Shown piece after piece: positions 11,558 through 49,109 of a stretch of 64,000 nt of DNA (its first letter is position 1; each line of letters opens with the position of its first letter). The stretch is taken from IMG/VR virus record IMGVR_UViG_3300036961_000217. The stretch is one strand, 5' to 3'. The DNA comes from an uncultured virus (IMG/VR IMGVR_UViG_3300036961_000217). Its lineage: Duplodnaviria > Heunggongvirae > Uroviricota > Caudoviricetes. Under the pieces are notes generated by a model that saw only the letters and a program-made list of their open reading frames with translations, searched no databases and was not told where the DNA came from. Made by a program: the position numbers and the translations under genes.

Positions 11558-11573
11558 AGTTTTCTCCTTTTGT

Positions 11574-13258: not shown

Positions 13259-13329
13259 AGTTTTCTCCTTATAACTCAATTCTTGTTTCCGCTATTGCAA
13301 TTTCATTCAGATCAATTTTGTGTTTCATT

Positions 13330-13635
13330 TCACTCTCCTTTCATAAAATCTTTGATCTTCCTTTCCATTTTCCATGACCACAATTGTATCTTCCATGACC
13401 ATGAACGTATTCTATTTTTATAATCACATACTTTTATCTCATATCCATAGTTGCCGAAACTCACGTAAAACGAAAATCCGTCCCAGACATATTCCTTGTG
13501 AAATCTACCAATTCCATACTCTTTAAAATTGCAGTATGTAGTCCTGCAAATTGAGATTCCTAGCCCATAACATAGAACTCCCCTTGCAGGTCCATTTCTC
13601 CAAAAACACGAATCGTGTTCTAGATCTCTTGCCAT
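13330..13635 (-). CDS. Hypothetical protein
   Basis: Coupled to the CCA gene. Confidence 0.6.
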   Translation of the reverse strand: MARDLEHDSCFWRNGPARGVLCYGLGISICRTTYCNFKEYGIGRFHKEYVWDGFSFYVSFGNYGYEIKVCDYKNRIRSWSWKIQLWSWKMERKIKDFMKGE

Positions 13636-13636
13636 T

Positions 13637-14866: not shown

Positions 14867-14928
14867 TTTAAACCTCCTTTTCTCCAGAAAACATGACAAT
14901 CTAGCAGACTCTCAAATTTCCTGGAAAC

Positions 14929-14969
14929 AAAAAAGCCCTGCAGGACATGGAACATAATCCTGCAGGGCT
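14929..14969 (-). terminator. Intrinsic terminator
   Basis: AGCCCTGCAGGA stem plus T-tract on the minus strand. Confidence 0.75.
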
Positions 14970-15632
14970 GGGAATTACACTGAAAGAATTGGTTTTCCTA
15001 CAGTGTAGGTCATAGAGTTATTGTATGCAATGATTGACTGAATTTCACGACGAGACAATTCAAGTCTTTCAAATTCCGAAAAATCGCGCAACCTGTTTTG
15101 TGTTGCGCGATAGATAGAACATTTCTCCTCCAGGTCTTTTTCGAAAAGCTGATCTGAAAGGAGGAGAGCGTGAATCATTTCTTCCCACATAACAATTCTC
15201 CTTCTTAGAGTTTCACGATTTTCCCGCCGAACATGCGACGGGCTTTTAAAGCTTTGCTTGAAGAAATATAGTATTGGTTCATAAACCTGGAAGTTTTTGG
15301 GAAAACGATCTTCCAGACATAGCCACATTGTTTCGCAAGTTTGTCGCTCATTTCTTCACCTCCACCGTTACGGTAAAGGTTTCTCTTCTACCGTTCAAAA
15401 CACGAACGGCAATGAATTGACCTGATTTAATGACTTCTGGCATAGCTTTCTCCTTGTAATTGAAGTTTGATTGAAACAGAGCGATATGCTCCAAGCATCT
15501 TTCATATTTCTATGAAAAATCCTTGCAACAAAAAACCCTGGAAATCTAAAAAATCAGATGATTGCAGCCTTCATAATTTCCAGAATTCTCCAGGGAAATT
15601 CATATAAAATCAAATTTCCCTGGAGAATATAA

Positions 15633-26611: not shown

Positions 26612-29350
26612 ATGGAACAAGCTCAGATAGATCAGATAGTTCAAAATATCCTATTAAATTATCCTCCTGATTATCTAAAGCAATGGGCAGATAGTAATCA
26701 ATATCTTAAATATCAGAGTGACCCGATAGGGTTTGGAAGAGACATATTAAAGGAGACTTATACTACAGATGTAGAAAACATGATGCTCTCTGTTAGAGAT
26801 CATCAAATGACTGTTGCTATATCGGGTAATTCTACTGGGAAGTGCGTAGAAGAGAATGAACGCATTATCCTCTCGGATGGGACTCTTGTTGTAGCGAAGG
26901 ATTTGATAGGCCAAAAATTTTCGATTTTGTCTTTTGGAGACGACTGGAAGCAAAAATCTTGTTCTGCTTTTGCATTTGATAATGGAGTTCAGCCAGTATT
27001 TAAAGTATCTATTGACGGTGGAAGAGAGATAGTTAGGACAGGAAATCATCCGTTATGGGCCGCTAGATTAAAGAAGACTAAAAATTCGAAACATGCTTTA
27101 CTTACTGTTGTTGATATGGGATGGAAAACTATTTCTGAATTGTCTAGTGAAGATATCGTTGCTGTACCAACAAAACTCAATACCATTAGACATAATGAAC
27201 AGGACGAAGACGATATTAAATTAGCTGCCTACTTATTAGCTGATGGTTGTATTATTAATGATATTAGATTTACTAAAAAATGTGGTATTGTTAAGAACGA
27301 ATTCGTAGAAATTATAGAAAGAATGGGATGTATTGCAAAGAAAACTGCAGATCCAAATACAATAAGAATTACAACCGATGAAAAATATCATGGATATGAT
27401 TCGAATCCTATACGGAATATAGTTAAGAGTTGGGGAATATTTGGTACAAAATCAAAACACAAAAGATTTCCAGATTGGATTTGGAGACTTTCTGACGACC
27501 AATTAGGACTATTCCTTAATAGGTTGTTCTCTTGTGATGGATGGGCCTATTCTAAGATTACAAAAAAAGGAAATAGGACCGAAATAGGATATTCATCAGC
27601 ATCAAAAGACATGATTGAAGATGTTTATTTTGCAGCATTAAGACTTGGTATTAGAGGTGATATTGTATACAAACTTGCCAAATGTGACGGTAAAAGTTTC
27701 GATGCATGGGTATGGACAATAAGAGATAAAGTCAATATCGACTTATTTAATAAAAATATTGGTCTTTTTGGAAAGCAAGAAGCACTTGATAGATGTGTTG
27801 ATATTAACAATGATAAAACCAAGACATTAAAATGGCCATACGTTAATATTCCAAGTGGATATAAATGGGAAAAAGTAAAATCAGTAGAGTACATTGGCGA
27901 TAAACCGACAGTCGGGATAAGTGTTCCGACTACCAATGTTTATTTAACAGACTTCGTTGAACATAATACGCATAGTTCTGCTAGTTTGGCTTTATGGTTT
28001 TATTTATGTCACCCAAGCTCTCTTATATTTACTGCGGCAGCACCTCCTTTAGATAATTTAAAACGTCTTTTGTGGGGAGAAATTGGAAGAAAAATATCTA
28101 GATGTAAAGACGATATATTCAATGGACACACATATAATGTAATGCATTTATGTGACAGTGAATGGCATTATATTACAGGTGTTGCGATTCCTCAATCGGG
28201 TGCTCCAGAACAAAAGACAGCGAAATTCTCTGGGAAGCACAGTCCGTACATGCTCTTTATAGTGGATGAAGCAGATGCAGTACCAGATGAAATATTTACA
28301 GGTATCGAAGGTTGCATGTCAGGTGGCCATGTTCGTTTGCTCTGTATGTTTAACCCCAGAATCATGGCTGGCTATGTCTATCGCAAAATTAGAGACAATC
28401 AATGTAATGTGGTTCATCTGTCAGCCTTCAATCACCCCAATGTGGTAACTGGCAAGGAAGTCTATCCAGGGGCAGTTTCGAGAGAAATAACAGTAAAACG
28501 AATCAATGAATGTTCCATTCCTCTTTATGCTACCGACGAGCCTGATCAGTACACATTTGAAGTCCCAAAATTCTTAGTTGGATGTACCGCAAAAAACGAT
28601 AAGGGAGTTGTCTACCCTCCTCTTCAGCCTGGATATCGAAAGGTTACGGACGCTCGTTTCTTCCACCAAGTCTTAGGCAGGTTTGGTCCACAAGGAGCAA
28701 ATCAGTTAGTTCCTCAAGACGCTATTGATCGAGCAAGATATCGTTGGGACGATTGGGTAAGCAGACACGGTGAAAATCCTCCTGAATTGGTTAGGCCGAT
28801 TTATGGCTTAGATGTTGCCGACCTTGGAGATGACAGCAATTGTAGATGTAAGAGATATGGGGATTGGGTAGCAAGATTTACTAGTTGGAAAGGTATTCAT
28901 CCTAATGAGTCTGCAGAACGTGTTGCTGACGAAGCCAAGATTGACAGTTCACTTAATGTGAATGTGGATTCGATTGGTATTGGGGTAGATGTCGCCCCGT
29001 TGCTTAGAAAAGCAGGAGTCAAAGCTTCTGGAATAAATATAGCAGAAAAACCTACCAAGGAGTATAAGAAGGACGAAAAGAACGTACTAAAGTTCTTTAA
29101 ATTAAGGGATCAACTCTATTGGGATACTGCAGAGTGGATTAAGAGTGATTATTCAATGCTTCCTCCAGATGAAAGGCTTATTGAGGAAGCAATGTGTATC
29201 ACTTACGAAGAAGACAAGACGACACGAAAGATCCGAGTGCTGTCAAAGGATAAAATGAAGGATGCTTTAGGAAGAAGTCCAGATCATTGGGATTCGTTGA
29301 CATTGACATTTGCACCAAAACCTAGATCTCCAAAGGCTAGGATATTATGA
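26612..29350 (+). CDS. terL: Terminase large subunit containing an intein
   Basis: Split Walker A GNSTGK/T, IVDEA, GLDVA, GRSPD..DSL. Confidence 0.93.
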   Translation: MEQAQIDQIVQNILLNYPPDYLKQWADSNQYLKYQSDPIGFGRDILKETYTTDVENMMLSVRDHQMTVAISGNSTGKCVEENERIILSDGTLVVAKDLIGQKFSILSFGDDWKQKSCSAFAFDNGVQPVFKVSIDGGREIVRTGNHPLWAARLKKTKNSKHALLTVVDMGWKTISELSSEDIVAVPTKLNTIRHNEQDEDDIKLAAYLLADGCIINDIRFTKKCGIVKNEFVEIIERMGCIAKKTADPNTIRITTDEKYHGYDSNPIRNIVKSWGIFGTKSKHKRFPDWIWRLSDDQLGLFLNRLFSCDGWAYSKITKKGNRTEIGYSSASKDMIEDVYFAALRLGIRGDIVYKLAKCDGKSFDAWVWTIRDKVNIDLFNKNIGLFGKQEALDRCVDINNDKTKTLKWPYVNIPSGYKWEKVKSVEYIGDKPTVGISVPTTNVYLTDFVEHNTHSSASLALWFYLCHPSSLIFTAAAPPLDNLKRLLWGEIGRKISRCKDDIFNGHTYNVMHLCDSEWHYITGVAIPQSGAPEQKTAKFSGKHSPYMLFIVDEADAVPDEIFTGIEGCMSGGHVRLLCMFNPRIMAGYVYRKIRDNQCNVVHLSAFNHPNVVTGKEVYPGAVSREITVKRINECSIPLYATDEPDQYTFEVPKFLVGCTAKNDKGVVYPPLQPGYRKVTDARFFHQVLGRFGPQGANQLVPQDAIDRARYRWDDWVSRHGENPPELVRPIYGLDVADLGDDSNCRCKRYGDWVARFTSWKGIHPNESAERVADEAKIDSSLNVNVDSIGIGVDVAPLLRKAGVKASGINIAEKPTKEYKKDEKNVLKFFKLRDQLYWDTAEWIKSDYSMLPPDERLIEEAMCITYEEDKTTRKIRVLSKDKMKDALGRSPDHWDSLTLTFAPKPRSPKARIL
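26843..27967 (+). mobile_element. 375-aa intein with LAGLIDADG endonuclease
   Basis: C1 (CVEENE) to HN/T; LAAYLLADG and FLNRLFSCDG; TGNHP block B. Confidence 0.93.
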
Positions 29351-30842: not shown

Positions 30843-32342
30843 ATGAGACTGCCATTTGGAATTGAAATCAGACGACAAAAACAAAGTCCAAAAACCGAAA
30901 AAAATCCCCTTCTTCGGAGATTGTTGTCTCCATTCCAATATGGTAAGTCATTACTTTATGATACAGACGTAACAAGGCAATTAAACGCCTACCGATCATG
31001 GGTTTATTGCGCTGCAGGATTAAATGCGCAGTGTGTCGCTCAAACCCCTCTTAGATTGTATTTTGCAAAACCCGCCAAGAATATCAAGACTATTTTTCCT
31101 ACCAAGGCAGTGTCTGAAGAAAAAATTGACAATTTAAATAGATTCCATAATATATGGAAAATCCCCGCTGTAAGAAAATCAGTTGGAATAGAAGAGGTTG
31201 TTGAGCATCCCGTTCTTGATTTGTTTCGAACTGTCAATAATTTCAATAATAGTTTTGATTTGTGGGAACTTACGGAGCTTTATCAGGAATTGACTGGTAA
31301 TGCGTACTGGTTGATTCTAAAAGACAAGAAGCTGAAAGTTCCTAGAGAAATTTGGACTATTCCTCCCGATAGAATCACACCTATTCCAGATCCAGACAAG
31401 TTCATTTCTGGATACAAATATGTATACGGCACCACAGAATATACATTTCCTGAAAGTATAATTATTCATTTTAAATTCCCTAATCCTCATAATATGTACT
31501 TAGGAATTGCTCCTCTTAATGCCGGTATTGCTGCGTACAATACAAATGAGAACATGCAAGTTTACAACAATTCAATGTTTCAAAATATGGGAAGACCATC
31601 TGGATTTTTTGAGACGGACGATGTTCTTGATGAAGAAGATTTTCAAAGACTTAAGATTGAATTGCACGATGTCTATTCTGGAGTTCAGAATGTAGGTAAA
31701 ATGGGCCTTTTGGATCATGGCCTTACTTTCCAACAGGTAGGATTAAAACCTGATGAATTGGCATTTATCGATGGAAGAAAGGCAATCCGTGAAGAGATTT
31801 TTAATGTTTATGGTCAGTCTGTAAGTCTTTGGTCAGAGAATACAAATAGAGCTAATGCTGATGCAGCAGAAAGGCAATTTTATCGTAGAACTATCCGTCC
31901 AAGGTGTATTCGTTTAGCAGAAAAATTGAATGAAAAACTCTTGCCACGATATGATGGCAATTTATTTTTTGCTTTTGACGATCCTAGTACCGATGATAAA
32001 TTGATTGACGCTCAAATTCGTAAAATGGATATTGGATCTGGTGTAGTTACAATAAACGAGTCTCGTAAGAAGATGCATCTTCCTCCATTGAAAGATGGTG
32101 ACTCCCCGTTAATACAGATTCAATACGCTCCATTAAGCTCTGTTGTATCTGGAGCGACACTTAATAGTGATCCTGGAGCAACTGCACCTCTTAATGAAGA
32201 CAAACCTAATAATAAACCACCTAAAGACGAAGAAAAACTACCTAAAAATGTAAAACCTTCTAAAGCATTAGTTGAGCATATTTTAATGTCTATGCTTGAA
32301 GATAAGATATACAATCAGAAGCTTAAACAACTTAGCAAATAA
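30843..32342 (+). CDS. HK97-family portal protein
   Basis: WVYCA, HPVLDL, TGNAYW, IIHFK, TINESR. Confidence 0.93.
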   Translation: MRLPFGIEIRRQKQSPKTEKNPLLRRLLSPFQYGKSLLYDTDVTRQLNAYRSWVYCAAGLNAQCVAQTPLRLYFAKPAKNIKTIFPTKAVSEEKIDNLNRFHNIWKIPAVRKSVGIEEVVEHPVLDLFRTVNNFNNSFDLWELTELYQELTGNAYWLILKDKKLKVPREIWTIPPDRITPIPDPDKFISGYKYVYGTTEYTFPESIIIHFKFPNPHNMYLGIAPLNAGIAAYNTNENMQVYNNSMFQNMGRPSGFFETDDVLDEEDFQRLKIELHDVYSGVQNVGKMGLLDHGLTFQQVGLKPDELAFIDGRKAIREEIFNVYGQSVSLWSENTNRANADAAERQFYRRTIRPRCIRLAEKLNEKLLPRYDGNLFFAFDDPSTDDKLIDAQIRKMDIGSGVVTINESRKKMHLPPLKDGDSPLIQIQYAPLSSVVSGATLNSDPGATAPLNEDKPNNKPPKDEEKLPKNVKPSKALVEHILMSMLEDKIYNQKLKQLSK

Positions 32343-32354
32343 TTGGAGTGCCAA

Positions 32355-33734
32355 ATGAAGAAATTCATTTTATTTATCGTTTGTCTGTTTATCTCAACTA
32401 GTGTTTATGCCGGGCCATTTATTGCTGGTGGTGGAGCTGGCACTGGAGATATGGCTGAAGCAACATACTCCACAGACGGCAAAATTAAAACTTCAAAAGG
32501 AGGCACCGGACAGGACTCGTCCGCCTGGGATGGCTGCTATCCCAGCCTGGTCGGCGGCGTGTGGGGTTGTGACGACAATGACACGCGAATGCAGCGGCTG
32601 ATTGGTCTTGTGATAGGGACTGATGTACTTGCTCCGAATGGCAGTGCGGCTTCACTGACTAATTTCCCAACTCTTAATCAAAATACAACAGGTACGGCTT
32701 CTGCTCTTGCTGCCAACGGTGCTAACTGCTCGGCTGGTCAGGCTCCTCTCGGGGTGGATGCGGCTGGTGCGGTCGAGGGATGCTTTGCTGTCGAAACCGA
32801 CACCGGCTGTACGCATGACGGAGCTGGGAATATCACGTGCGCCAGCTACACGACGACTAGAACGGATGCCGCGCAATACTTCAAACTCTACGAAGCCACA
32901 AGTGATGGAAATTCTTCCGCAACATTTGCTGTGCCAGCCAAGGGGACCGGCCTTGCTGGAGATATCGACCTTACCTTCTCGAAGTCTTTAAGCTTCACAG
33001 GTACGTTTACGGACGGCAAACTGTGCACCTACGCTTCGAGTGGGGCTGTTATCTCGTGCAATACTGATGCTGCTGGCACGGGCACGATGACAACCGTCTC
33101 CGAGGATCACGTCGAGGTCGGAAGTGCCGATGTAACGCAGCTCAATTTTGGCGCAGGGTTTGATGTAGCCGATAACGGGACTATCGCTGAGATTACGCTA
33201 GAGAGCACGGTTGTCCGTGCGGGCGTAACCGAAGTCACCCGCTACCAGTATCTTCCAGCCGCATGGTTCGAGGACAATGCAACCTCTCCACCTGCCGCCG
33301 CCGCGGTCATCTCCGGCGAGGAAATCAAGGCCCGTTTGTTTGCCGATAATGAAACCTCCATCGTGCTCTGGCAGGTAGATCCTGAGTGGTCGGCGGGGCT
33401 CAAGTTCCGGGTCTATTATTCCTTGGTGGCTGATGGCGAGGCTGACGACACTGCTATTTTCCGGCTCAAGGGCTGCACTATCGGCAACAGCGAGGCGTTG
33501 ACTTGCACGGCAGGAGATCCAATAGGCGTGACGGATGAGATCGGCACAGATGATGATGCCAACCAGATGATGCTGACCGACTGGTCCGACGAGGTGACCT
33601 TGACCGGCGTTGCCGCCAATGAGCTGGCGCGGCTGACGTTCTACCGGGGCGAGGATGACGAGGCCGGGGAACTGAACGTGATCGGGATCGAGCTGAAATA
33701 TAAGGCCAAAGTCAGCGCTGCCAGCGACTACTAG
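32355..33734 (+). CDS. Fibre-like protein with Sec-type signal peptide
   Basis: MKKFILFIVCLFISTSVYA; GGTG and FPTLNQNTTGTA fibre-type motifs; paired Cys. Confidence 0.7.
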   Translation: MKKFILFIVCLFISTSVYAGPFIAGGGAGTGDMAEATYSTDGKIKTSKGGTGQDSSAWDGCYPSLVGGVWGCDDNDTRMQRLIGLVIGTDVLAPNGSAASLTNFPTLNQNTTGTASALAANGANCSAGQAPLGVDAAGAVEGCFAVETDTGCTHDGAGNITCASYTTTRTDAAQYFKLYEATSDGNSSATFAVPAKGTGLAGDIDLTFSKSLSFTGTFTDGKLCTYASSGAVISCNTDAAGTGTMTTVSEDHVEVGSADVTQLNFGAGFDVADNGTIAEITLESTVVRAGVTEVTRYQYLPAAWFEDNATSPPAAAAVISGEEIKARLFADNETSIVLWQVDPEWSAGLKFRVYYSLVADGEADDTAIFRLKGCTIGNSEALTCTAGDPIGVTDEIGTDDDANQMMLTDWSDEVTLTGVAANELARLTFYRGEDDEAGELNVIGIELKYKAKVSAASDY

Positions 33735-33939: not shown

Positions 33940-34388
33940 ACTACTACAGACACTACGATGATTGTGAGACCGTTTCAACGAGTAGTATCAATGTCGGTTG
34001 CTCCTTTTGTGGGCGCGATCTGTCGAATTATTATGTAGTGACCTATTTGGATGGGCGGCCGATTTGTGATGAGTGTCTGGCCAAAGTGCGATTGTCGGTA
34101 CAGTGAGCAATCGATGGCAAATATATCTCTGCTGGTCAGACGGACGATATTTTCGTTATGGAAGCGCCAAGACGGAGCAAGGGGCGACAGATAGTCTTAG
34201 GTCAGCATTCAAGGACAGCTACTTCCGTGCGGAAGGTATCTATGTCGGCAAGATTCGCCACCCGGATGGATGGGTGAGCTATTTGAGTGCCGATAAACTC
34301 ACCCGCCAATGGCGGCGGAATGAGATCGGGGGTCGCCTGCAAGGGGCGTCCCCTGCAAGACTTGATAAGAGGAGTACATGGGATTTGT

Positions 34389-34835
34389 ATGACCAAAATT
34401 CTCATATCTGGCTTTCCTAAAACTGGGAAATCAACATTTGCAAATGAACTATCCAATCAGTATAAAAATATTCAGATACTACATACTGATGATTTAATTG
34501 AAAATCATAATTGGAAAGATTCGTCAGATATTGTTTCAAATTGGATCTTAGAAAATGAATATATAATAGAAGGAGTAACGGTCATAAGAGGGTTGAGAAA
34601 ATTAATAACGTCTTATCCACATAAAAGATTTGACGATATTACATTGTACTACTTGACCAAACCAAAAATTGAATTGAATACGAAACAATTTGCAATGGCA
34701 AAAGGAATTCAAACAATTTTTATGTCGATTCATGGATTATTAAAAGAGAGAGGATTAAATATCATCTTTCCAAAAGGTGAATGGAATTTACCAGTAATTA
34801 AAAAGGAATTTGTAAAAAGACGCTATAGAGTATAG
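34389..34835 (+). CDS. Small P-loop NTPase/kinase
   Basis: ILISGFPKTGKST, HTDD, IIEG. Confidence 0.75.
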   Translation: MTKILISGFPKTGKSTFANELSNQYKNIQILHTDDLIENHNWKDSSDIVSNWILENEYIIEGVTVIRGLRKLITSYPHKRFDDITLYYLTKPKIELNTKQFAMAKGIQTIFMSIHGLLKERGLNIIFPKGEWNLPVIKKEFVKRRYRV

Positions 34836-34935: not shown

Positions 34936-37548
34936 ATGGAAGTTCAAAATAAGATGTTTGAAGTTGTAGAGAAGAAAGAGATCAACGATGAGGAAAGGTC
35001 TATTGTAGCATGGGGATCTCGTCCAGTACTCGATAGAGATATGGAAAAAATAGCCGCCGATGCAAAATGGGAACTTGACAATTTTAAGAAGAATCCTGTT
35101 TTGTGTATTTCCCATGATTATTCAAAATTACCTGTTGGCAAGGTACTTTGGACTAAAGTTACTTCAGAAGGATTGCGTTTTAAAGCCCAATTCGCCAAAA
35201 CTCCTACTGGAGAAGAACTTTGGACATTATACAAAGACGGTATAATGAATGCGTTTTCTATCGGATTTCTTCCATTGAAATATACTGAACCAGACATGGT
35301 TAAATCTGGAGAACCAAGGCGTATTTATGAACATCTAGAGTTGTTAGAGATTTCTTGTGTAAGTATTCCTTCATGTCCTGCGGCTATAATGGAAATGTAT
35401 AATGATGGCAAAATTAAAACAAAAGATTTTTCGGATGTTTTGGCAAAAATAAAGGAGGAATCACATGGGCAAATCGAAGCAGAAGAAAAAGCAATCTCAG
35501 AAAACGAAGAAGGAACAGCAGCCAGTGGCGACAGGGAAGAAAAAGAAGTAGTTACTAAACCTGAAACTACTGAGAATTATCATCATATTCCTGTCAGTGA
35601 AGGACATGATGGTCATAAGATTCGGACTATCAAGGTTACTGATGGTATTAAAGCCTTGTACTGTGTGGAATGTAAAGAAATAAAAACATATTTATTCGAT
35701 GTAGATAAATTCACCATGGAAGAAGCTCGTCAGTGGATTCAAGATCACAAGAAGGCTGTTGATACAGCAATGGACATTATTGATAAAGACGAAGAATTTG
35801 ACGGTCTTGATCTCAAGTTGGTTGATGAATACGAAGAAGTCGATATTAACATTGAATGTGGGAAAGAAGATGAAAAACCATGTGATCAGAAGTCTAAAGA
35901 AGACGAAGTAGAGGAAGAAGCTTATAGAGAACCAAAAAAGGAATTTGAAGAAATCCAAATCCCGTTTGGTGAGAGGGTTGTTCCAAAGGAATTTCAAGCT
36001 GAGCGTTGGAATAAATCGTTAAGCAAAACTTTTGATATTCAGAATGTTCCAAGTAAGCCTGCCTCATATACCATGCAGATTTATTGTGCTTTTCTTGAGT
36101 GCAAGGTGAAGAATGTTTATATGAACGATTTCTTTATCCATTCTCCATTGCTTGGCTCTTATCTTGCTGGATTTAAGAATAAAACCAATGATTTTACACT
36201 GAAAGATGTTCGTGCGTTCTCAAAGTATGAGCAGCTTGAATTTCCTCCTGTATATGAAGTGATTCAGATCAATAGCAAAACTCATGATGATTTTCTGATT
36301 GATGGATCTGCTTTTTATGAGATTGATGGGGTTCCTGTGGTTCTAAGTTTCACTCCTGATCGGTATGGACTTCATGCTACGATTTATACATCACGAAAAT
36401 ATATGGATTTCAATAAGGACTTGATGAAATCGGTTCATGAGTGGGTTGAAAAGGAAAATCCTCTCAAAGACGAAAAAATGGGCCTTAACGGTGAGTTTCT
36501 CGATATCGATCCTGCTGATGATTGGGATACGATTGTCCTCTCAGATGGCAATTTAAAGGCTGCAAAACATGCTCAGAAACTTATTGATGAAAAAGAAATG
36601 GGCTTCGATGGTCGTGGCATGTTGATGCTCGGAAAACCCGGAACCGGAAAAACCAAAGTATCTCGCATACTTATGTCCCAAACCAAACACACTTTCATCT
36701 GGGTAAGTTCGAAAGATCTCACAAATACATATTATCCAGAAGATAAAATTGCTCTAGGATTTAAATTGGCAAGGAAGCTTGCACCTTCGATTTTGTGCTT
36801 GGAAGACATCGATAATTGGATCAATGGCAAAATCGTTGACATGATGAAAACAGAGCTTGATGGAGTCAAGAAAAACACTGGTGTCATTACTATTATGACA
36901 ACCAACTCTCCTGAAAAGCTCCCTGATGCTCTGCTTGATCGTCCTGGTCGTTTCAGTGATATTCTCCATTTCGATTCTCCTACAAAAGAACTTCGTCAAC
37001 AAATGATCGAAAAGTGGATTGGAGAAATCAGTGAAGGAAGTATGAAATCTATCCTTGAAACTACTGAAGGGTACTCAGGCGCATACATGTGGGAACTGAT
37101 TCAATTTGCTAAAACTATGGCTGAAGATCATGAAATGGCGATTGAAGACGCCCTTGTTGAAAGCTTGGAGAAGCTTATTGGGCAGAAAGATCTTATTGCT
37201 CAAATTCGAGGAGAAAAGAAACAAGAGGATAACGAACCTGAAGAGAAAGAAATTGATGTGGAAGACATTGCTATCAAGGCAATGTACGAAACACTTGAAA
37301 AATCAGGTAGGACTATTTCTTCAAGAAATCAACAGAGAATTCGTGAAGCAATCGAAACTTTGAGTTCTTTGATTGACGCTGAAGAAAAAGTTGAAGAAGT
37401 AGATATCGAAGTTGAACAAGACAGTATAGATCCAGAAGAGGCTAAATCAGCACTTCAATCTATCGTGAAAGACTTCCTCTCTGAAAGACCAGATGTACAG
37501 ACTCTTATTGATGAACGTATCAAAAGAGCACAGGGGAGGATGTTCTGA
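34936..37548 (+). CDS. HK97-type prohead protease fused to an AAA+ ATPase
   Basis: DRD, NPVL..HD, FSIGF, LLEISCV; then GKPGTGKT, LEDID, TTN, DRPGRF. Confidence 0.9.
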   Translation: MEVQNKMFEVVEKKEINDEERSIVAWGSRPVLDRDMEKIAADAKWELDNFKKNPVLCISHDYSKLPVGKVLWTKVTSEGLRFKAQFAKTPTGEELWTLYKDGIMNAFSIGFLPLKYTEPDMVKSGEPRRIYEHLELLEISCVSIPSCPAAIMEMYNDGKIKTKDFSDVLAKIKEESHGQIEAEEKAISENEEGTAASGDREEKEVVTKPETTENYHHIPVSEGHDGHKIRTIKVTDGIKALYCVECKEIKTYLFDVDKFTMEEARQWIQDHKKAVDTAMDIIDKDEEFDGLDLKLVDEYEEVDINIECGKEDEKPCDQKSKEDEVEEEAYREPKKEFEEIQIPFGERVVPKEFQAERWNKSLSKTFDIQNVPSKPASYTMQIYCAFLECKVKNVYMNDFFIHSPLLGSYLAGFKNKTNDFTLKDVRAFSKYEQLEFPPVYEVIQINSKTHDDFLIDGSAFYEIDGVPVVLSFTPDRYGLHATIYTSRKYMDFNKDLMKSVHEWVEKENPLKDEKMGLNGEFLDIDPADDWDTIVLSDGNLKAAKHAQKLIDEKEMGFDGRGMLMLGKPGTGKTKVSRILMSQTKHTFIWVSSKDLTNTYYPEDKIALGFKLARKLAPSILCLEDIDNWINGKIVDMMKTELDGVKKNTGVITIMTTNSPEKLPDALLDRPGRFSDILHFDSPTKELRQQMIEKWIGEISEGSMKSILETTEGYSGAYMWELIQFAKTMAEDHEMAIEDALVESLEKLIGQKDLIAQIRGEKKQEDNEPEEKEIDVEDIAIKAMYETLEKSGRTISSRNQQRIREAIETLSSLIDAEEKVEEVDIEVEQDSIDPEEAKSALQSIVKDFLSERPDVQTLIDERIKRAQGRMF

Positions 37549-37684: not shown

Positions 37685-38935
37685 ATGAAAATTGAAGAGT
37701 TCAAGAGTCTTTTGAGTGACACTGTAAAGCCGATGCTTGAGGAACATGGTAAGGCGTCCGATGAGCGCATTATCGCCCTCATCGATGAGAAAATCGCAAA
37801 GGTGTCGGATGAGGTTCAGAAAACCTTTAAGATCGAAACCCACGATAATCGTGTAGACGATAAAAAGGGTGGGTTTAAACACTTTGGGCAGTTTCTTGGT
37901 GCTGTGCAGCAGTGTGGTTCGTCTGGTGGGCGCACCGTTTCAAAGGAACTTGCCGAATGGGAAACTATTTCCAAAGCAGCTGGTACTGGCCTGAGTGAAG
38001 CCGATGCTAATTATGCCGGTTTCCTGGTGCCTGAAGAGTTTCGTAACCAGCTCATGGTTCTTGTTGAGGAAGAGAATAATCTGCTTCCTCTCTGCGCTAA
38101 AATGCCCATGCAGAGCAACATTATCAAGATCCCCTACGTGGATGGCTTTGATAAGTCAGCTGGTCTGGTCTATGGTGGTGTGAAGTGGTACTGGGTTGCT
38201 GAAGAGGCTCAGGCTACCGAGACTCGTCCCAAGGTCGATATGCTCCAGATGGAACTTCATACTCTGGTCGGGTTGGCCTTTGCAACTGAGCAGCTGATTG
38301 CCGATTCTCCCACTTCTGTTGAAGCACTTCTGAAACAGGGTTTTCAGAGTGGGTTGAATTACGTTTACAATGAAGTTCTCCTCCATGGAACAGGGGTGGG
38401 ACAGCCGCTCGGCGTTGTAAACGCTCCTTGTGCGGTAACGGTTTCATACGAGACAGGTCAATCGACTACTACACCTATTCTTTTTGAAAATGTCGTGAAG
38501 ATGTATTCTCGTTCTACCAATCCTGGCAAGGCAGTTTGGGTAGCAAACATTGCATTGCTTCCCTATCTAGCGTCGATGTCATTGTCCGTAGGTACTGGTG
38601 GTGTCCCAGTTTGGCTCCCTGCGGGTGGCGCAGCTGGAATGCCTTATGCTACTCTGTTTGGTCGGCCTATTTATTGGAACGACCATTGTAGCGATGTTAA
38701 TACTACTGGTGATATTGCTTTTGTTGACTGGTCTCAATATTGGATTGGCTCCAAGGCAGGGAACGATATTCCCGACTATGCAACCAGTATTCACTTAAAA
38801 TTCGACTACTTACAGCAAGCTTTTCGTTTTTCCATAAGGACCGAGGGCCGTCCTGCCTGGCGTACATATTATACACCTCCAAAAGCAACTACTACCACGA
38901 GATCTCCGATAGTTTTATTGCAAACACGTGTGTAA
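37685..38935 (+). CDS. Major capsid protein (HK97 fold)
   Basis: AGFLVPEEF, WVAE, GTGVGQPLG, TLFGRPI. Confidence 0.95.
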   Translation: MKIEEFKSLLSDTVKPMLEEHGKASDERIIALIDEKIAKVSDEVQKTFKIETHDNRVDDKKGGFKHFGQFLGAVQQCGSSGGRTVSKELAEWETISKAAGTGLSEADANYAGFLVPEEFRNQLMVLVEEENNLLPLCAKMPMQSNIIKIPYVDGFDKSAGLVYGGVKWYWVAEEAQATETRPKVDMLQMELHTLVGLAFATEQLIADSPTSVEALLKQGFQSGLNYVYNEVLLHGTGVGQPLGVVNAPCAVTVSYETGQSTTTPILFENVVKMYSRSTNPGKAVWVANIALLPYLASMSLSVGTGGVPVWLPAGGAAGMPYATLFGRPIYWNDHCSDVNTTGDIAFVDWSQYWIGSKAGNDIPDYATSIHLKFDYLQQAFRFSIRTEGRPAWRTYYTPPKATTTTRSPIVLLQTRV

Positions 38936-38983
38936 TGAAATTTCGTGAATTATTGTGAGATCGTGTATAATGTAATTGTCCAT

Positions 38984-39071
38984 TTGACATGGCTAGGGTT
39001 CGCGGCCCGAAAACAATGATCCTGACATTGCCGCCATGTCAATTTAACAATTCAGGATGTTCTGTCAGGAG
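38984..39071 (+). ncRNA. Three-way-junction leader whose loop is complementary to the downstream RBS (C4-antisense-like)
   Basis: TTGACATGGC/GCCATGTCAA stem; loop ATCCTGA; TCAGGA at 39052 and 39065. Confidence 0.55.
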
Positions 39072-39078
39072 GACAACA

Positions 39079-39870
39079 TTGAATTGCAACGACATTTCTG
39101 TAATGAGTGATTTAAGGGAAAAATCAAAAAAACGTCCAAAAGTTAAGGCGATTTGTTTAAATTGTGGAGAAGAATTTCTGGTTTATCGCTCTCAAATCGA
39201 ATATAGGAATGGAGGTAAATTTTGTAGTAAAAATTGTAGATATCAATATATGAGAGGAGAAAATCATCCACGAAGCAAACCAAAGATCGATATAATTTGT
39301 GAGACATGTGGCAAATTATTTCATATTAATCAGTACAAGTCTAAGACTGCGAAATATTGTTCTTTAGACTGTAGGAACAAAGCATTGGTTGGAAGGTATG
39401 TTGGAGAAAAAAGCCCAGTATATTCTAGAGTATCTAAACAATGTCCGGTTTGTGGATTAGAATTTACTGTTAAACAATCACAAAATAATCGGTGTATTGA
39501 TAATTGTTGTTCGAAAGAATGCTCGATACAATGGGCTAGTTTGTCTGGCAAGTTTTGTGGAGAGAACAACCCTATGTTTGGAATAATTGGAGACCAGTCT
39601 CCAGCATGGAATGGAGGTTCTTCTAATTTCCCATATCCATTCGAATTTAACAAACAACTTAAACTAGATATTAGGACAAGAGATGAGTTTAAATGTAGAA
39701 TATGTGGGGAAAAGGAGGGAGACATAGCCTTTCCTGTTCACCATATAAATTACAATAGAAATGACAACTTTAATGAAAATTTAATACTACTTTGTGTTAG
39801 TTGTCACTCTAAAACAAATACCAATCGAAATTATTGGGAATCTTATCTAAACAGCCTGATGATTTCTTAA
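39079..39870 (+). CDS. Free-standing HNH endonuclease with Zn-ribbon repeats (TTG start)
   Basis: Three CxxCG...CS..C repeats; VHHINY..N...NL..LC..CH. Confidence 0.88.
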   Translation: MNCNDISVMSDLREKSKKRPKVKAICLNCGEEFLVYRSQIEYRNGGKFCSKNCRYQYMRGENHPRSKPKIDIICETCGKLFHINQYKSKTAKYCSLDCRNKALVGRYVGEKSPVYSRVSKQCPVCGLEFTVKQSQNNRCIDNCCSKECSIQWASLSGKFCGENNPMFGIIGDQSPAWNGGSSNFPYPFEFNKQLKLDIRTRDEFKCRICGEKEGDIAFPVHHINYNRNDNFNENLILLCVSCHSKTNTNRNYWESYLNSLMIS

Positions 39871-39941
39871 TATATCGATTTTTCTTTTGAATCACTCATT
39901 ACAGATTTTTCAACACTTAAACTTGTAAAGGAGCAACAATC

Positions 39942-41090: not shown

Positions 41091-42002
41091 ATGGCTAAAA
41101 CTGAACTTTTTGTTAGAAAATATGGTGGTGGTGTTTTCTCGGTAGTGAATGAAACAATGACCACTGGCAATGTATGGTATGTCGATTCAGGGGCTGGAAC
41201 TGATTCTGCCGCTTATGGGAAAAATCCAGATACTCCTTTTGCTACTCTTGATTATGCCATTGGAAAGTGTACTGCAAGCAATGGAGATATTATTTTCGTT
41301 ATGCCTGGTCATGCAGAATCCATTGTAGGTGCATCAACTCTGACTTTGGACATAGCAGGAGTAAAAATCATTGGTCTTGGTAGTGGTTTGACGATTCCTA
41401 CTTTTACCTATACCACTGATGCTACAGCTACTTTTAATATTACCGCTGCTAATTGCCATGTCGAGAATATCTACTTGTATGCTAACTATACCGGAGGTGT
41501 TACGGCTGGTATCACCGTTGGTGCATTGGCAGACGGACTTGTTCTTAAGAATATTATTATGGAAGAAGGCGCGAACACAACCGAGTTTCTAATTGGAATC
41601 AGCATTGCCGATGCTTGCAATCATGTGACTATTGATGGTCTCAAATTCTATGGTGTTGCCGGTGGAACGGATTCAAGTTGCATTGTTCTTGCTGGAGCTT
41701 CTAATTTCTCTATCATTAAAAATTGCGAGATTTATGGAGACTTCTCTGGTGCTGTAATTGATGCAACTGGTGCTGCGTCTACGTTTTTGACACTGAAAGA
41801 TAACATCCTCCACAATGTAGATACTGGAGCGGGTCTTACTTTTTCTGCCCATTCTTCTACTACTGGAATTTGTGCAAATCTCGCTGCTTTTGGTAATTTA
41901 GACACAGCAACTCCTGTCGGAGCTGCAATGGCATTTTTCCAGAGTCTTGTTACTAATGCTGCTGGTGCTCAAGGAATTTACAAACCGGCTCAGGATAGTT
42001 AA
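41091..42002 (+). CDS. Beta-helix virion-type protein, paralog A
   Basis: YVDSG...PFATLDYA, GDIIFVMPGH, beta-helix-like repeats. Confidence 0.8.
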   Translation: MAKTELFVRKYGGGVFSVVNETMTTGNVWYVDSGAGTDSAAYGKNPDTPFATLDYAIGKCTASNGDIIFVMPGHAESIVGASTLTLDIAGVKIIGLGSGLTIPTFTYTTDATATFNITAANCHVENIYLYANYTGGVTAGITVGALADGLVLKNIIMEEGANTTEFLIGISIADACNHVTIDGLKFYGVAGGTDSSCIVLAGASNFSIIKNCEIYGDFSGAVIDATGAASTFLTLKDNILHNVDTGAGLTFSAHSSTTGICANLAAFGNLDTATPVGAAMAFFQSLVTNAAGAQGIYKPAQDS

Positions 42003-43568
42003 TTAATAATTTCAATTACTTAGTGAGTAAGACTATATTGATCTTCTACAACGGTTTAAACCCGCGAAGAAAGGAATAGGAAATGGCTAAAACTGAACTT
42101 TTTGTTAGGAAACAAAATGCCGGTGTATTCACCGCAGTAAATGAAGATTCAACAACTGGTAATATTTGGTGGGTAGATTCCGGGGCTACTTCTGGTGGTG
42201 CTGATTCAGCTGGATATGGAAAGAGTCCTGCCTCTCCATTTCTGACTCTCGACTATGCTGTTGGTAATTGTACTGCTAGTAATGGGGATGTGATCTATGT
42301 CATGCCTGGGCATGAGGAAGATTTGGTTGGGGCAACCTCTCTAACCCTCGATGTGGCTGGTATCAAAGTCGTTGGTTTGGGAAGTGGACTTTCTATCCCG
42401 AAGTTTACCTTGAAAACTGCTGCCGCTGCAACTGTAAATATCACCGCTGCTAATTGCCATGTCGAGAATATCTACTTGTATGCTAACTATACCGGAGGTG
42501 TTACGGCTGGTATCACCGTTGGTGCATTGGCAGACGGACTTGTTCTTAAGAATATTATTATGGAAGAAGGCGCGAACACAACCGAGTTTCTAATTGGAAT
42601 CAGCATTGCCGATGCTTGCAATCATGTGACTATTGATGGTCTCAAATTCTATGGTGTTGCCGGTGGAACGGATTCAAGTTGCATTGTTCTTGCTGGAGCT
42701 TCTAATTTCTCTATCATTAAAAATTGCGAGATTTATGGAGACTTCTCTGGTGCTGTAATTGATGCAACTGGTGCTGCGTCTACGTTTTTGACACTGAAAG
42801 ATAACATCCTCCACAATGTAGATACTGGAGCGGGTCTTACTTTTTCTGCCCATTCTTCTACTACTGGAATTTGTGCAAATCTCGCTGCTTTTGGTAATTT
42901 AGACACAGCAACTCCTGTCGGAGCTGCAATGGCATTTTTCCAGAGTCTTGTTACTAATGCTGCTGGTGCTCAAGGAATTTACAAACCGGCTCAGGATAGT
43001 TAATTAATAATTTCAATTACTTAGTGAGTAAGACTATATTGATCTTCTACAACGGTTTAAACCCGCGAAGAAAGGAATAGGAAATGGCTAAAACTGAACT
43101 TTTTGTTAGGAAACAAAATGCCGGTGTATTCACCGCAGTAAATGAAGATTCAACAACTGGTAATATTTGGTGGGTAGATTCCGGGGCTACTTCTGGTGGT
43201 GCTGATTCAGCTGGATATGGAAAGAGTCCTGCCTCTCCATTTCTGACTCTCGACTATGCTGTTGGTAATTGTACTGCTAGTAATGGGGATGTGATCTATG
43301 TCATGCCTGGGCATGAGGAAGATTTGGTTGGGGCAACCTCTCTAACCCTCGATGTGGCTGGTATCAAAGTCGTTGGTTTGGGAAGTGGACTTTCTATCCC
43401 GAAGTTTACCTTGAAAACTGCTGCCGCTGCAACTGTAAATATCACCGCTGCTAATTGCCATGTCGAGAATATCTACTTGTATGCTAACTATACCGGAGGT
43501 GTTACGGCTGGTATCACCGTTGGTGCATTGGCAGACGGACTTGTTCTTAAGAATATTATTATGGAAGA
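41442..43568 (+). repeat. Tandem duplication, period 1001 bp
   Basis: 41442..42567 appears identical to 42443..43568. Confidence 0.92.
42083..43003 (+). CDS. Beta-helix protein, chimeric paralog B
   Basis: N-terminal half equals C, C-terminal half equals A. Confidence 0.75.
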   Translation: MAKTELFVRKQNAGVFTAVNEDSTTGNIWWVDSGATSGGADSAGYGKSPASPFLTLDYAVGNCTASNGDVIYVMPGHEEDLVGATSLTLDVAGIKVVGLGSGLSIPKFTLKTAAAATVNITAANCHVENIYLYANYTGGVTAGITVGALADGLVLKNIIMEEGANTTEFLIGISIADACNHVTIDGLKFYGVAGGTDSSCIVLAGASNFSIIKNCEIYGDFSGAVIDATGAASTFLTLKDNILHNVDTGAGLTFSAHSSTTGICANLAAFGNLDTATPVGAAMAFFQSLVTNAAGAQGIYKPAQDS

Positions 43569-44004
43569 GTCAGCGAATACTACTGAGTTTCTAATTGGAA
43601 TCAGCATTGCCGATGCTTGCAATCATGTGACTATTGATGGCCTGCAGTTCTTTGGTGTTGATGGTGGCAGTAATACTCAGTGTATTATCTTTGCTGGAGT
43701 TTCCAATTTTTCGGTGGTTAGAAACTGCCTGATCTATGGAGACTTCTCTGGTGCCGCCATAGATGCTCTTACTAAAGCATCGACTTATATGACCATTGCC
43801 AACAATCTTGTTTGGAATACAGATACGACTGCAGCTTTGGTTATTTCAGTTAAATCTGATACGACTGGTATGATGGCATATAACTATTGTTTTGCTCCTA
43901 AAAACAACATCTGTCCTGCGGGTGCAGCGATGGCTTATGTACAGAACTTTACAACTAATGTTGCTAACAAAAATGGATTTTACCTCCCTGCTGTGGACTC
44001 CTAA
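43084..44004 (+). CDS. Beta-helix protein, paralog C
   Basis: Same motifs as A, divergent C-terminus. Confidence 0.8.
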   Translation: MAKTELFVRKQNAGVFTAVNEDSTTGNIWWVDSGATSGGADSAGYGKSPASPFLTLDYAVGNCTASNGDVIYVMPGHEEDLVGATSLTLDVAGIKVVGLGSGLSIPKFTLKTAAAATVNITAANCHVENIYLYANYTGGVTAGITVGALADGLVLKNIIMEESANTTEFLIGISIADACNHVTIDGLQFFGVDGGSNTQCIIFAGVSNFSVVRNCLIYGDFSGAAIDALTKASTYMTIANNLVWNTDTTAALVISVKSDTTGMMAYNYCFAPKNNICPAGAAMAYVQNFTTNVANKNGFYLPAVDS

Positions 44005-46374: not shown

Positions 46375-47616
46375 ATGAGTGAGATAGTAGCCCTCCGCAA
46401 AGAAAACGGCAAGATGTTTGATGCCGGGCGAGACGCCAAGAGTGGCAGGCCCAGCTACACGCTTGAGGCTAGGACTGGGCCGATCCACTACAAGGAAGAG
46501 TACAAAGATACCGACCCCTGGCTTGATCTGGATGAGACGTATTGTGAGGAGAGCAAGGCGGGATTGGTCTATCCCAAGATGCCGAACATCGTCACGGTGT
46601 TCCAGGACCGCTGTGGCTACCAGATTCAGTCCCGCTCGAATCCCGATCACATCGCCAGGGTCGAGCTGGTCTCCATCGATGGTCAGAACGTGACCGCCTG
46701 GCAGGATTCGGCAACACTCAAAGTCTATGCCCGAGTCCATCCATACCGAGTGGGCATCTGGAAGGACTTCTCAGGCGCAAGCAAAGCCAAGTCTACAACG
46801 ATGCGCTGGCGTGTGACTGAGCTGGGTAACGCCAAGAAAGATAGCCATCCGTTTGCATTCAGAGACCAGCCCGAAGCTTACAGTATTGCTGACCTGGCCA
46901 GCCTTGACCCCGAAGCGATGAAGAAGGCCAAGGTTGCCATCGAGACGGCCCGGACTCGGATCGACGACACCTCGTGGTACTGGGACGAGCTTATCCCGGC
47001 TGAGGCCAAGTTAGTTGACACTGACTGGCAGGTGGGGGTTGCGACGGACGATGGCCGGTGGTGCGGAAATTCGGAAAATCCGTACACTGGCTATGATCTT
47101 ACAATTGGTCAGGCTGGGCTTTTACATTACCGTAATTTCTATTTGTTTAGAAGTCTCGGAATACAGGGTGGCTCAACTATAAATAGTGCTTATGTGACCC
47201 TTCGTGCAAAAGGAAAAGGATATTTGCCGTGTTATGGTCGGCATACAGCAAAATTGGCGATCAATCCAGGCCCACCGACTAAACAGGCTGATGTTACCCC
47301 AAAGACGACAGCATACGTGGATTGGAGACGTGGTAGTTGGTTCACTAACACTAATTATAATTCACCAAGTCATGCAAGTATAGTTCAGGAAGTGGTGAAT
47401 CAATCAGGATTTTCGACAAGCAGCAACATACTCATGTTTGATTACGATAATGGTAGCTCGAACGGATACTATGTCATAAGTTATTCTTACAGTAATTCAT
47501 CAAGCTATGCTCCAAAATTGACCGTCACCTGGACTGAGCCCACCCTACGTGGGCACATCTATGTTCCAAACGTTTCCTGGCTTTCAAAATCACTTCTAAA
47601 ACGAAGGGAGATCTAA
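46375..47616 (+). CDS. Mosaic virion-type protein
   Basis: GC-rich N-terminal part, AT-richer C-terminal domain (INSAYVTL...PKLTVTW). Confidence 0.7.
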   Translation: MSEIVALRKENGKMFDAGRDAKSGRPSYTLEARTGPIHYKEEYKDTDPWLDLDETYCEESKAGLVYPKMPNIVTVFQDRCGYQIQSRSNPDHIARVELVSIDGQNVTAWQDSATLKVYARVHPYRVGIWKDFSGASKAKSTTMRWRVTELGNAKKDSHPFAFRDQPEAYSIADLASLDPEAMKKAKVAIETARTRIDDTSWYWDELIPAEAKLVDTDWQVGVATDDGRWCGNSENPYTGYDLTIGQAGLLHYRNFYLFRSLGIQGGSTINSAYVTLRAKGKGYLPCYGRHTAKLAINPGPPTKQADVTPKTTAYVDWRRGSWFTNTNYNSPSHASIVQEVVNQSGFSTSSNILMFDYDNGSSNGYYVISYSYSNSSSYAPKLTVTWTEPTLRGHIYVPNVSWLSKSLLKRREI

Positions 47617-47618
47617 CA

Positions 47619-48065
47619 ATGGCAGGTGTAATCGCGGTAGCCAATACCGCCGAGGTTGCCTTAACTGCTGCAACGGCCAAAACCGTGCTGCAATTGATCG
47701 CAGCGAGTAATCACCCCGTGAAGGTCAAATCTTGGGGCGTCTTCTTTGATGGGGCCAGCGTAACTGATGAACCCGTTCAGGTCCGCTTACTGCGCCAAAC
47801 CAGTGCCGGAACCATGTCATCCCTCACCCCGGTGGAACGCTCACTGACCGGTGTAACGCTGCAGACCACCGCGCAGCATACGGCCACGGAGGAACCATCG
47901 GCGGGCAATGTCCTCGCCGCACGCGAGGTTCACCCCCAGGGCGGCTATCAAGAAATTTTCCCCGCAGGCGATGAGGTTATGATCGGCTCTGCCGGTCGTT
48001 TGGGGATCGAATGCACTGCCCCGGCCAAGGTCAATGTTCGTGCCGAGATCGTCTTCGAGGAATAA
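47619..48065 (+). CDS. Putative structural protein
   Basis: VALTAATAKTVLQ; beta-rich. Confidence 0.7.
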   Translation: MAGVIAVANTAEVALTAATAKTVLQLIAASNHPVKVKSWGVFFDGASVTDEPVQVRLLRQTSAGTMSSLTPVERSLTGVTLQTTAQHTATEEPSAGNVLAAREVHPQGGYQEIFPAGDEVMIGSAGRLGIECTAPAKVNVRAEIVFEE

Positions 48066-48068
48066 GTC

Positions 48069-49109
48069 GTGATTCGCCCGGCATCCAAACGCAGCCCCTA
48101 CCTGCACCGCCCATGCGGGCAAACGACTGCCTCTTACGTCTATGAGGGCGATTGTACCCTCAGCATCACCCCCGAGCACAGTGAAGCTGCAACTTGGGCA
48201 CCATCGACTGAGGTTGCGCTCAGCCTTGCATCTGAGCATAGCATCATTCTGAGTGTTGCCACCACTGTCGAAGCTCAGGTTGCGCTCTCTCCGGAAAGCT
48301 TGCCAGGGCTGGTCGTCCTTCCGCCATCCGAAGTAACAATCACCGCCACTCCGCAATCAGGGACGCTCGCAGGCTTTGCGCCGGCAACCGAGAGCGCCGT
48401 TACCTTGGCACCACAAGGCTCTGTGGCCAACACCTTTGCTCCATCCTCAGAGCAATCGCTCAGTCTTCTCGGGGAAGCTCAAACACTCGTCTCTCTGAAT
48501 CCAGAAACGCTTCTTGAAGTGGCATTGGCACCAGAGCATGAGCTTCTCTTTGTCGCTTCCTGTGATGTGGAGGCCATTCTTTCCCTGACTCCCGAGCATG
48601 GTGTGGTCCTCGCCTTCGCTGCACTCACGGAAGCGACGGTCTCTCTCGTTCCAGAAGCGGACGTTACTACAACTATCCCAACAATCTATGAATACCTTGG
48701 GGAAGTATCCTGCTCGCTCAAGAGCGAACATTCCGTTTTGTTTGCGGCTCTTCCTTCAAGCCAGCTATCCGTCACGCTCTCTCCGGAGAGCATTGCGGCA
48801 ACGGCCTGGCAACCAAGCACGGATGTATCGCTCACCCTGCTGCCGGAGCATACCCCTGAAGTAGTTTTCGCCCCCTCACCCGAAATGCTGCTGATTCTCC
48901 AGCCAGAGCATTCACTCCTGGCCACCATGCAGGCTGACGCCGACCTCGTCTTAGCACTTTCTCCGGCCGGATCATTTCTCTTCATCACAAGCACTCCCTG
49001 GACCACGCTTTCCCTGGAACTCCTGATGGACCAGTACACGGCAACCCTTGCCGTAGAGCAGATCACAGCAACCCTGCAACCGGCAACCTATAGCGCAACC
49101 CTTGAATAG
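48069..49109 (+). CDS. Repeat-rich fibre-like protein
   Basis: Recurring ~23-aa E.xLsLxPEH units. Confidence 0.7.
   Translation: MIRPASKRSPYLHRPCGQTTASYVYEGDCTLSITPEHSEAATWAPSTEVALSLASEHSIILSVATTVEAQVALSPESLPGLVVLPPSEVTITATPQSGTLAGFAPATESAVTLAPQGSVANTFAPSSEQSLSLLGEAQTLVSLNPETLLEVALAPEHELLFVASCDVEAILSLTPEHGVVLAFAALTEATVSLVPEADVTTTIPTIYEYLGEVSCSLKSEHSVLFAALPSSQLSVTLSPESIAATAWQPSTDVSLTLLPEHTPEVVFAPSPEMLLILQPEHSLLATMQADADLVLALSPAGSFLFITSTPWTTLSLELLMDQYTATLAVEQITATLQPATYSATLE

Follow-up and report, generated by a model that had tools for sequence, protein, structure and literature searches.

A prohead protease fused to a classic-clade AAA+ ATPase in uncultured tailed phages points to an ATP-dependent function tied to the capsid

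Why would a phage write a complete AAA+ ATPase into the gene of its prohead protease? To our knowledge, procapsid assembly and proteolytic maturation of tailed phages and herpesviruses are regarded as independent of ATP until the terminase acts. The question is raised by a stretch of 64,000 nucleotides from an uncultured virus of the Caudoviricetes (IMG/VR record IMGVR_UViG_3300036961_000217; in the following, the window), where positions 34936..37548 of the plus strand hold a single open reading frame (ORF) of 870 amino acids (P0001) with an ATG start and without any internal stop. This ORF is a modular prohead-protease polyprotein, in which an S78 prohead protease, a small His/Cys domain, a family-specific N-domain, a classic-clade AAA+ ATPase and a helical tail follow one another from the N- to the C-terminus. 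An earlier note on this DNA had described a fusion with just these parts, including an acidic linker, a second linker and a domain of about 170 residues ahead of the ATPase, and all of them were found. The fusion is a real, widespread and undescribed variant of the prohead protease, which points to an ATP-dependent function tied to the capsid.

The domain borders were set with hidden Markov models (HMMs) built from an alignment of the fusion family. On the plus strand, like all features of the ORF, they delimit the HK97 gp4-type (S78) prohead serine protease domain (residues 20-161; 34993..35418), the small "ENY" His/Cys domain (residues 205-275; 35548..35760), the N-domain with an alpha+beta fold in AlphaFold2 models (residues 356-539; 36001..36552) and the AAA+ domain with its lid (residues 557-758; 36604..37209), while the tail model covers residues 787-870 of a helical C-terminal part with a basic end (residues 772-870; 37249..37545). 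The protease is recognized by Pfam Peptidase_S78 (PF04586; residues 35-153, E 6e-10, 39.9 bits against a cut-off of 21) and by the head maturation protease family phrog_80 of PHROGs (residues 1-187, E 7.4e-22). The ATPase matches Pfam AAA (PF00004; residues 562-680, E 2.9e-20) as well as several phage AAA families of PHROGs without assigned function (residues ~541-800), in addition to the motif and structure matches described below. All three linkers are acidic, with aspartate and glutamate making up 14 of 43, 30 of 80 and 11 of 28 residues; the first spans residues 162-204 (35419..35547) and the second residues 276-355 (35761..36000).

Within the protease, H60, S108 and E138 are shared by all 25 proteases aligned, and we take H60 and S108 to be the catalytic pair, going by H65 and S114 of HK97 gp4. 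H224, H227, C243 and C246 of the ENY domain are kept in just 13-15 of 25; this domain also occurs in relatives without an ATPase, and an ESM Atlas search matched it only to unnamed viral clusters (scores 0.82-0.85). A conserved RWNKxLSKxFD peptide precedes the N-domain. An internal start ahead of the N-domain was considered and rejected, as no methionine occurs between residue 262 and this domain and the next one lies inside it. The tail carries the motif K-x-G-R-x-(L/I)-S-x-x-N, and its HMM (cterm) matches nine protease-ENY-tail proteins without ATPase; another protease family, phrog_3017, matches the tail weakly (E 0.0032). The earlier description of the C-terminus as a protease- or scaffold-type tail is thus borne out by its homology to the tails of ATPase-less prohead proteases, and judged from sequence the tail is a putative capsid-targeting or scaffold-like part.

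The joining of the domains recurs in independent data. Full-length copies of the 870 residues, 99-100% identical, are found on four IMG/VR contigs, each from a different metagenome, and the cluster at 90% identity comprises 18 members from JGI, ENA and Logan, with a length of 870 residues in 12 of the 15 listed. The stretch is held wholly or partly by 20 sequencing runs of 16 studies on wastewater, activated sludge, digesters and biogas reactors; six of these runs are recorded as RNA. Contigs of four runs from four studies (three DNA libraries and one RNA library, the latter examined as contigs and hence showing presence, not expression level) span the ORF with substitutions only. The ten substitutions are H402P, Y784C, seven silent changes and one TGA to TAA exchange at the stop codon. 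The only indel in the run contigs lies at 37664, beyond the ORF, and joints within the ORF were not seen in them. The check for a stop, frameshift or misassembly between the domains, which the earlier note had called for, therefore turned up none in the four IMG/VR contigs and the four runs.

The fusion is common in metagenomes, and no cultured phage with it was found. An exhaustive HMMER search over 1.84 billion representatives of 50%-identity clusters (threshold E<=1e-30) returned 489 representative clusters, with residues ~355-760 as the conserved core. In the following, the family refers to the 147 members examined, namely the query and 146 of the best 150. The N-domain and AAA domain are present in all 147, and 129 of them also have the protease, which comes first in 128 and is permuted in one (P0125). 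Among the 18 members without a protease match, eight start at most 50 residues from the N-domain and may be cut gene calls. For these counts it has to be kept in mind that the family protease HMM was built from the same alignment that it scored; Pfam's own PF04586 model is less sensitive and found the domain in six of the 20 ATPase-bearing proteins among 29 scanned. No second kind of carrier was seen, since PHROGs gave AAA families only in 14 of 15 members searched, while P0125 matched protease families as well. With the family protease HMM, 12 of these 15 remained without match, whereas P0125, P0199 and P0206 matched. In the long C-terminal extensions of members with 1100-1535 residues, Pfam detected nothing. 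None of 521 matching INPHARED records covers at least 80% of the fusion, the matches being to the protease alone or the AAA domain alone, and the nearest virus record (G001, a fragment rated 44% complete) has no match to the fusion. Scanning one genome of each prokaryotic species for a sequence pattern yielded four relatives, all of them in metagenome-assembled genomes (MAGs), assigned to Cloacimonadota, Thermoanaerobaculia, Melioribacteraceae and Pirellulales.

The N-domain and the AAA+ domain together form a cassette of 442 residues, inserted between the protease part and the tail and flanked by acidic linkers. This cassette is optional and exchangeable. P0007, an ATPase-less protein of 547 residues, agrees with the fusion at 99% identity in residues 1-329 and at 97% in residues 772-870, but carries 119 other residues where the fusion has 330-771. 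These 119 residues hold a CPDC...C stretch resembling a zinc ribbon, besides a charged linker and a helix. The upstream border of the exchange falls at about residue 330, within the second acidic linker. Conversely, P0003 has another protease domain, followed from about residue 183 by the identical sequence, and the recombination junction lies in the first acidic linker. Among 19 IMG/VR loci of the window's protease clade, four are copies of the window phage with the ATPase and 15 lack it. The proteases of these ATPase-less loci have 275-844 residues with variable middle parts, and Pfam found no family in the middle inserts of the ATPase-less relatives scanned, except for a fusion of protease and major capsid protein (MCP) in L022. 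With the MCP of the window, those of the ATPase-less loci share 30-45% identity, and that of the ATPase-bearing locus L007 shares 44%; the type of capsid protein is therefore no predictor of the module. Over 8001 pairs of 127 fusions, the N-domain plus AAA domain average 44% identity, compared with 33% for the protease, and the two values are only weakly correlated (Spearman 0.145); pairs with proteases at least 70% identical average 54% in the cassette. We also considered the cassette as an intein and discarded this idea, as its flanks are without splicing residues and it has the fold of an ATPase.

The ATPase has Walker A, Walker B, sensor 1 and a second region of homology (SRH) with two arginines, as is typical of the classic AAA clade. 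Each conserved position of Walker A (GKPGTGKT; G566, G569, G571, K572, T573), sensor-1 N657 and each residue of the DRPGRF motif of the SRH (D668, R669, P670, G671, R672, F673) is kept in all 147 family members. The same is true for Walker B (LEDID; E623-D624-x-D626), which is of the ED and not the DE type. Such a replacement of DE by ED is described as exceptional among classic AAA proteins in an account of YjoB and Bcs1, which, according to its passages on both proteins, have N-domains of the same fold and handle folded or aggregation-prone clients in an internal chamber (PMC9565160). Pore loop 1 reads TNTYYP in the window, with a family consensus of roughly F-[YHW]-[YR]-x-G against the canonical K-aromatic-hydrophobic-G; Y, H or W stands at position 597 in 69 of 147 members and Y at position 598 in 48 of 147. 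The pore-loop-2 stretch after Walker B is about 10 residues shorter than that of VAT. As a separate observation, three of the 20 ATPase-bearing proteins scanned (P0042, P0201 and P0210) have inteins within the AAA domain, close to the P-loop, one of them with an HNH_3 endonuclease. Inteins usually sit in conserved functional sites.

Structure comparison of both domains together leads to the same two proteins. In Foldseek, an AlphaFold2 model of residues 340-770 (mean predicted local distance difference test (pLDDT) 93.3, predicted template modelling score (pTM) 0.87) retrieved YjoB or Bcs1 entries at all of ranks 1-14, and these matches span both domains, since 373-433 columns are aligned. VIA-align gave Z 21.0 over 353 aligned residues for YjoB (7w42_B) and Z 19.4 over 336 for Bcs1 (9gsn_A), while the other ATPases listed (proteasomal, p97, FtsH and others) align over ~218-249 residues with Z up to 19.5; the lead of YjoB over plain AAA domains is therefore just about 1.5 in Z. 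On the sequence level, the one stretch of YjoB found by single-sequence phmmer scores 65.9 bits versus 58.7 bits for the best VAT domain. YjoB of Bacillus subtilis (PDB 7W42) and mitochondrial Bcs1 (9GSN, 6UKS) thus resemble the module in combining an N-domain with a single classic-clade AAA domain and an ED Walker B. They differ in that the N-domain of the fusion is without sequence similarity to theirs and shows weak fold similarity when tested alone, and in that the module is embedded in a viral protease polyprotein. In contrast to Bcs1, the fusion also lacks an N-terminal transmembrane anchor: no transmembrane helix was predicted in the polyprotein, the maximal Kyte-Doolittle mean over 19 residues being 1.42 (cut-off 1.6), in the protease core.

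With regard to its genomic setting, the fusion belongs to a siphovirus-like phage and sits between the portal gene (30843..32342, plus strand; PF04860, phrog_2662, phrog_12) and the MCP gene (37685..38935, plus strand; PF05065, phrog_10). The MCP has the HK97 fold and a delta-like helical N-terminal domain of ~97-110 residues. Pfam Phage_capsid (PF05065) begins at MCP residue 112, the first ~97 residues look helical, and this helical N-terminus ends at a K-AAG boundary conserved in 12 of 13 aligned relatives; it therefore appears to be a delta-type scaffold domain as in HK97. A separate scaffold gene was found neither in the window nor in the distant relatives L007 and L008 (on contigs of 144 and 159 kb from the bins of a Melioribacteraceae MAG and a Pirellulales MAG), in both of which TerL, portal, fusion and MCP follow in this order. 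The MCP gene also comes after the protease gene in 12 additional loci. HK97 gp4-type proteases (MEROPS S78, PF04586; long forms with a scaffold-like tail) are alike in the invariant His/Ser catalytic domain, in the position between portal and MCP and in the helical C-terminal tail, which is shared with the ATPase-less relatives, whereas the fusion adds the 442-residue cassette and the His/Cys domain between catalytic domain and tail. A cleavage motif common to MCP and tail was looked for by comparing GRTVSKEL before the MCP boundary with GRTISSRN in the tail; the likeness is too loose to call.

What, then, could the ATPase do? We tentatively favour, at less than even confidence, a ring chaperone with a conserved client inside the phage, acting at the procapsid stage. 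By analogy to HK97, the tail would tether the polyprotein to the delta domain of the MCP in the assembling shell, and tens of ATPase copies would be built into the procapsid. The C-terminal part of HK97 gp4 is reported to direct foreign proteins into proheads, a finding ascribed to Duda, Oh and Hendrix in 2013. Protease copies per prohead are given as ~60 for HK97 and ~90 for D3 in the relevant passage of PMC12749128, so tens of ATPase chains would be enclosed, enough for several rings. Within the procapsid or just before, the ATPase may form hexameric or heptameric rings with an internal chamber, again by analogy. Such a ring, like those of YjoB and Bcs1, would be an ATP-dependent holdase or remodeller of folded proteins rather than a threading unfoldase, and the protease would then cut the acidic linkers, which are likely cutting places. 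Candidate clients are the MCP delta domain, a capsomer and the protease itself; a conserved head component is favoured because, among phages that differ widely, conservation is higher in the cassette than in the protease.

Several findings weigh against this proposal. The N-domain folded alone (pLDDT 92.8) had no match at Z>=8 when compared by VIA-align with 48,161 chains; the best (Z 7.4) is to unrelated alpha+beta domains, and YjoB is not among the best 50 rows, which does not by itself exclude kinship. Bcs1 (6ukp_A) ranks 13th in this search with Z 5.7. Its root-mean-square deviation of 3.6 A over 104 residues, on the other hand, speaks for the likeness, as it is the level given for YjoB against Bcs1 in PMC9565160. 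In Foldseek, the N-domain alone matched nothing at E<=0.001; helix-grip proteins rank first, and five Bcs1 entries follow at E 4e-3 to 1e-2. At the top of the family profile search against PDB sequences stand Cdc48, p97, VAT and AFG2, and the first 60 ranks contain neither YjoB nor Bcs1, which likewise leaves a kinship compatible with the search. Because neither the N-domain alone nor the sequence profile is decisive, we limit the term Bcs1/YjoB-like to architecture and Walker B and do not extend it to membership of their clade. Besides, an optional and shuffled cassette would also suit a passenger destined for the next host, or an accessory that the phage can do without.

The first of these alternatives is the strongest competitor of the procapsid chaperone, even if we hold it to be unlikely: the cassette would be loaded via the tail, freed by cleavage and ejected together with the DNA, and once in the newly infected host it might for instance remodel or inactivate a host or defence protein. 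The position of the cassette between the protease and the targeting tail and its optional nature fit a capsid chaperone and packaged cargo alike. In addition, the module is exchangeable, and the slot also takes other inserts without assigned function. Head-packaged proteins that are processed by the protease and act after injection are known, with the internal proteins of T4 and Dar of P1 as precedents. On the other hand, the cassette is better conserved than the protease across phages and relatives occur in MAGs of four bacterial phyla; this spread together with the conservation argues for a conserved client rather than for fast-evolving host targets. Moreover, a ring of ~300 kDa would presumably have to dissociate and unfold to pass the tail, and features of ejection proteins were not seen.

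Quite unlikely, by comparison, is a cytoplasmic assembly chaperone, whose ring would escort the MCP or the protease before or during shell assembly without being kept inside, the fusion merely securing stoichiometry and co-localisation. This idea draws on YjoB, which is presented as an aggregation-suppressing holdase using its chamber in PMC9565160, and on phage BCS1 homologues, for which Iyer et al. (2021; PMC7824862) propose binding and translocation of folded proteins on their way to the head. However, the ATPase lies upstream of a tail common to ordinary encapsidated proteases and would hence be dragged inside unless cut first, and sister phages with equally related MCPs assemble without the ATPase.

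A Lon- or FtsH-like machine, in which the AAA ring unfolds scaffold or delta domains and threads them into the fused S78 protease, is very unlikely. It is true that both activities reside on one chain in the 129 family members with all three domains, just as Lon and FtsH have AAA+ and protease on a single polypeptide, that every ATPase motif is intact and that an aromatic residue is frequent in pore loop 1. In contrast to these enzymes, however, the fusion has the reversed domain order, long flexible linkers and non-canonical pore loops, and its protease is of the herpesvirus/HK97 fold family and not of S16 or M41. Its protease is N-terminal and not stacked beneath the ring, with ~200 residues of flexible acidic linker and one further domain in between. 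Pore loop 1 does not follow the aromatic-hydrophobic-Gly pattern, the pore-loop-2 stretch is shortened and Walker B is of the ED type, as in chamber chaperones; among the three roles suggested by the earlier note (capsid chaperone, unfoldase or delivered cargo), these features leave the unfoldase as the least supported. Besides, the cassette combines freely with unrelated protease lineages, and close relatives of the protease work without it. Finally, a misassembly or sequencing error that joined two genes is practically inconceivable and is refuted, because independent contigs, runs and diverged homologues agree: the ORF is intact in four IMG/VR contigs, its 90% cluster has 18 members from several sources, contigs of four runs are free of indels within it, and hundreds of diverged homologues have the same domain order.

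Outside the fusion, the window encodes TerS, TerL, a lysozyme, an HNH endonuclease, head completion proteins, a lambda-like tail tube and a tape measure protein of 1368 residues. In TerL (26612-29350, plus strand; 912 residues), the terminase match is confined to residues 513-904, and residues ~159-452 match LAGLIDADG_3 and Intein_splicing, a pattern suggestive of an intein that contains a homing endonuclease. Directly upstream of the fusion lies a small P-loop protein (34287-34835, plus strand; GFPKTGKST) with weak AAA_18/KTI12 matches, whose gene was not seen at the corresponding place in L007 or L008. Two GC-rich islands (32343-33734, 52%, and 46375-49109, 50-56%; both plus strand) stand out from the otherwise 34-43% GC of the phage; the first holds an ORF of 463 residues rich in Thr, Gly and Ala, with a signal-peptide-like start, between portal and protease, and the ORFs of the islands gave no Pfam or PHROG match. 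About 2 kb past the MCP, three tandem paralogues of 303-306 residues (41091-44004, plus strand) with mutual identities of 68-88% are without family match. In two further metagenomic copies of this phage (L002, 4944-6368, and L003), ~1.4 kb of unrelated DNA replaces the last ~43 MCP codons and the HNH gene, and the MCP ORF in these copies stops at 380 residues; the affected region of the window is 38808-39927. This variation of the MCP 3' end is a mobile-element polymorphism, possibly an intron or intein. The leftward arm (1817-15328, minus strand) encodes a DEAD-box helicase, a pentapeptide-repeat protein of 335 residues, DUF932, MazG, a CCA-adding/poly(A) polymerase-like enzyme and a family-10 glycosyltransferase.

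In our full-text literature searches, no account of a fusion between prohead protease and AAA+ ATPase turned up, and within the reach of these searches the statement of the earlier note holds that prohead proteases work without ATP. A related precedent is the observation of BCS1 orthologues in jumbo phages, for which a role in head assembly was proposed (Iyer et al., 2021; PMC7824862); as the main text of this article never uses the term "prohead protease" (0 occurrences), it describes no such fusion. Stand-alone ATPases of this kind share with the fusion a phage-encoded AAA domain with the ED Walker B; an example is gp69 of the cultured N4-like Pseudomonas phage Littlefix (L024, 5284-6756), an AAA protein of 490 residues annotated as hypothetical, in which this motif reads IFCEDID. 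They are, in contrast, separate genes; Littlefix gp69 adjoins rIIA/rIIB and not the head module, and its N-terminal part has no match to the N-domain HMM of the fusion family. The fusion is the first genomic link of phage BCS1-like ATPases to the head, a connection that had so far been a conjecture (PMC7824862).

In hundreds of phage lineages, an intact and conserved ATPase is written into the protease gene, and its best two-domain structural matches are chaperones of folded proteins. Near-identical phages with ATPase-bearing and ATPase-less alleles provide a ready-made natural comparison. It is conceivable, though doubtful, that a large uncultured group of phages uses an ATP-driven procapsid step before DNA packaging, in which tail-tethered Bcs1/YjoB-like rings hold, position or release folded parts of the head; such rings might gate the activation of the protease or template capsomers via their six or seven tails. 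If the ATPase were indeed delivered cargo, the protease tail would be a natural route for loading enzymes into capsids, useful for the engineering of capsid cargo. If it acts in the procapsid, the fusion would reveal an unrecognised energy-using step in head morphogenesis.

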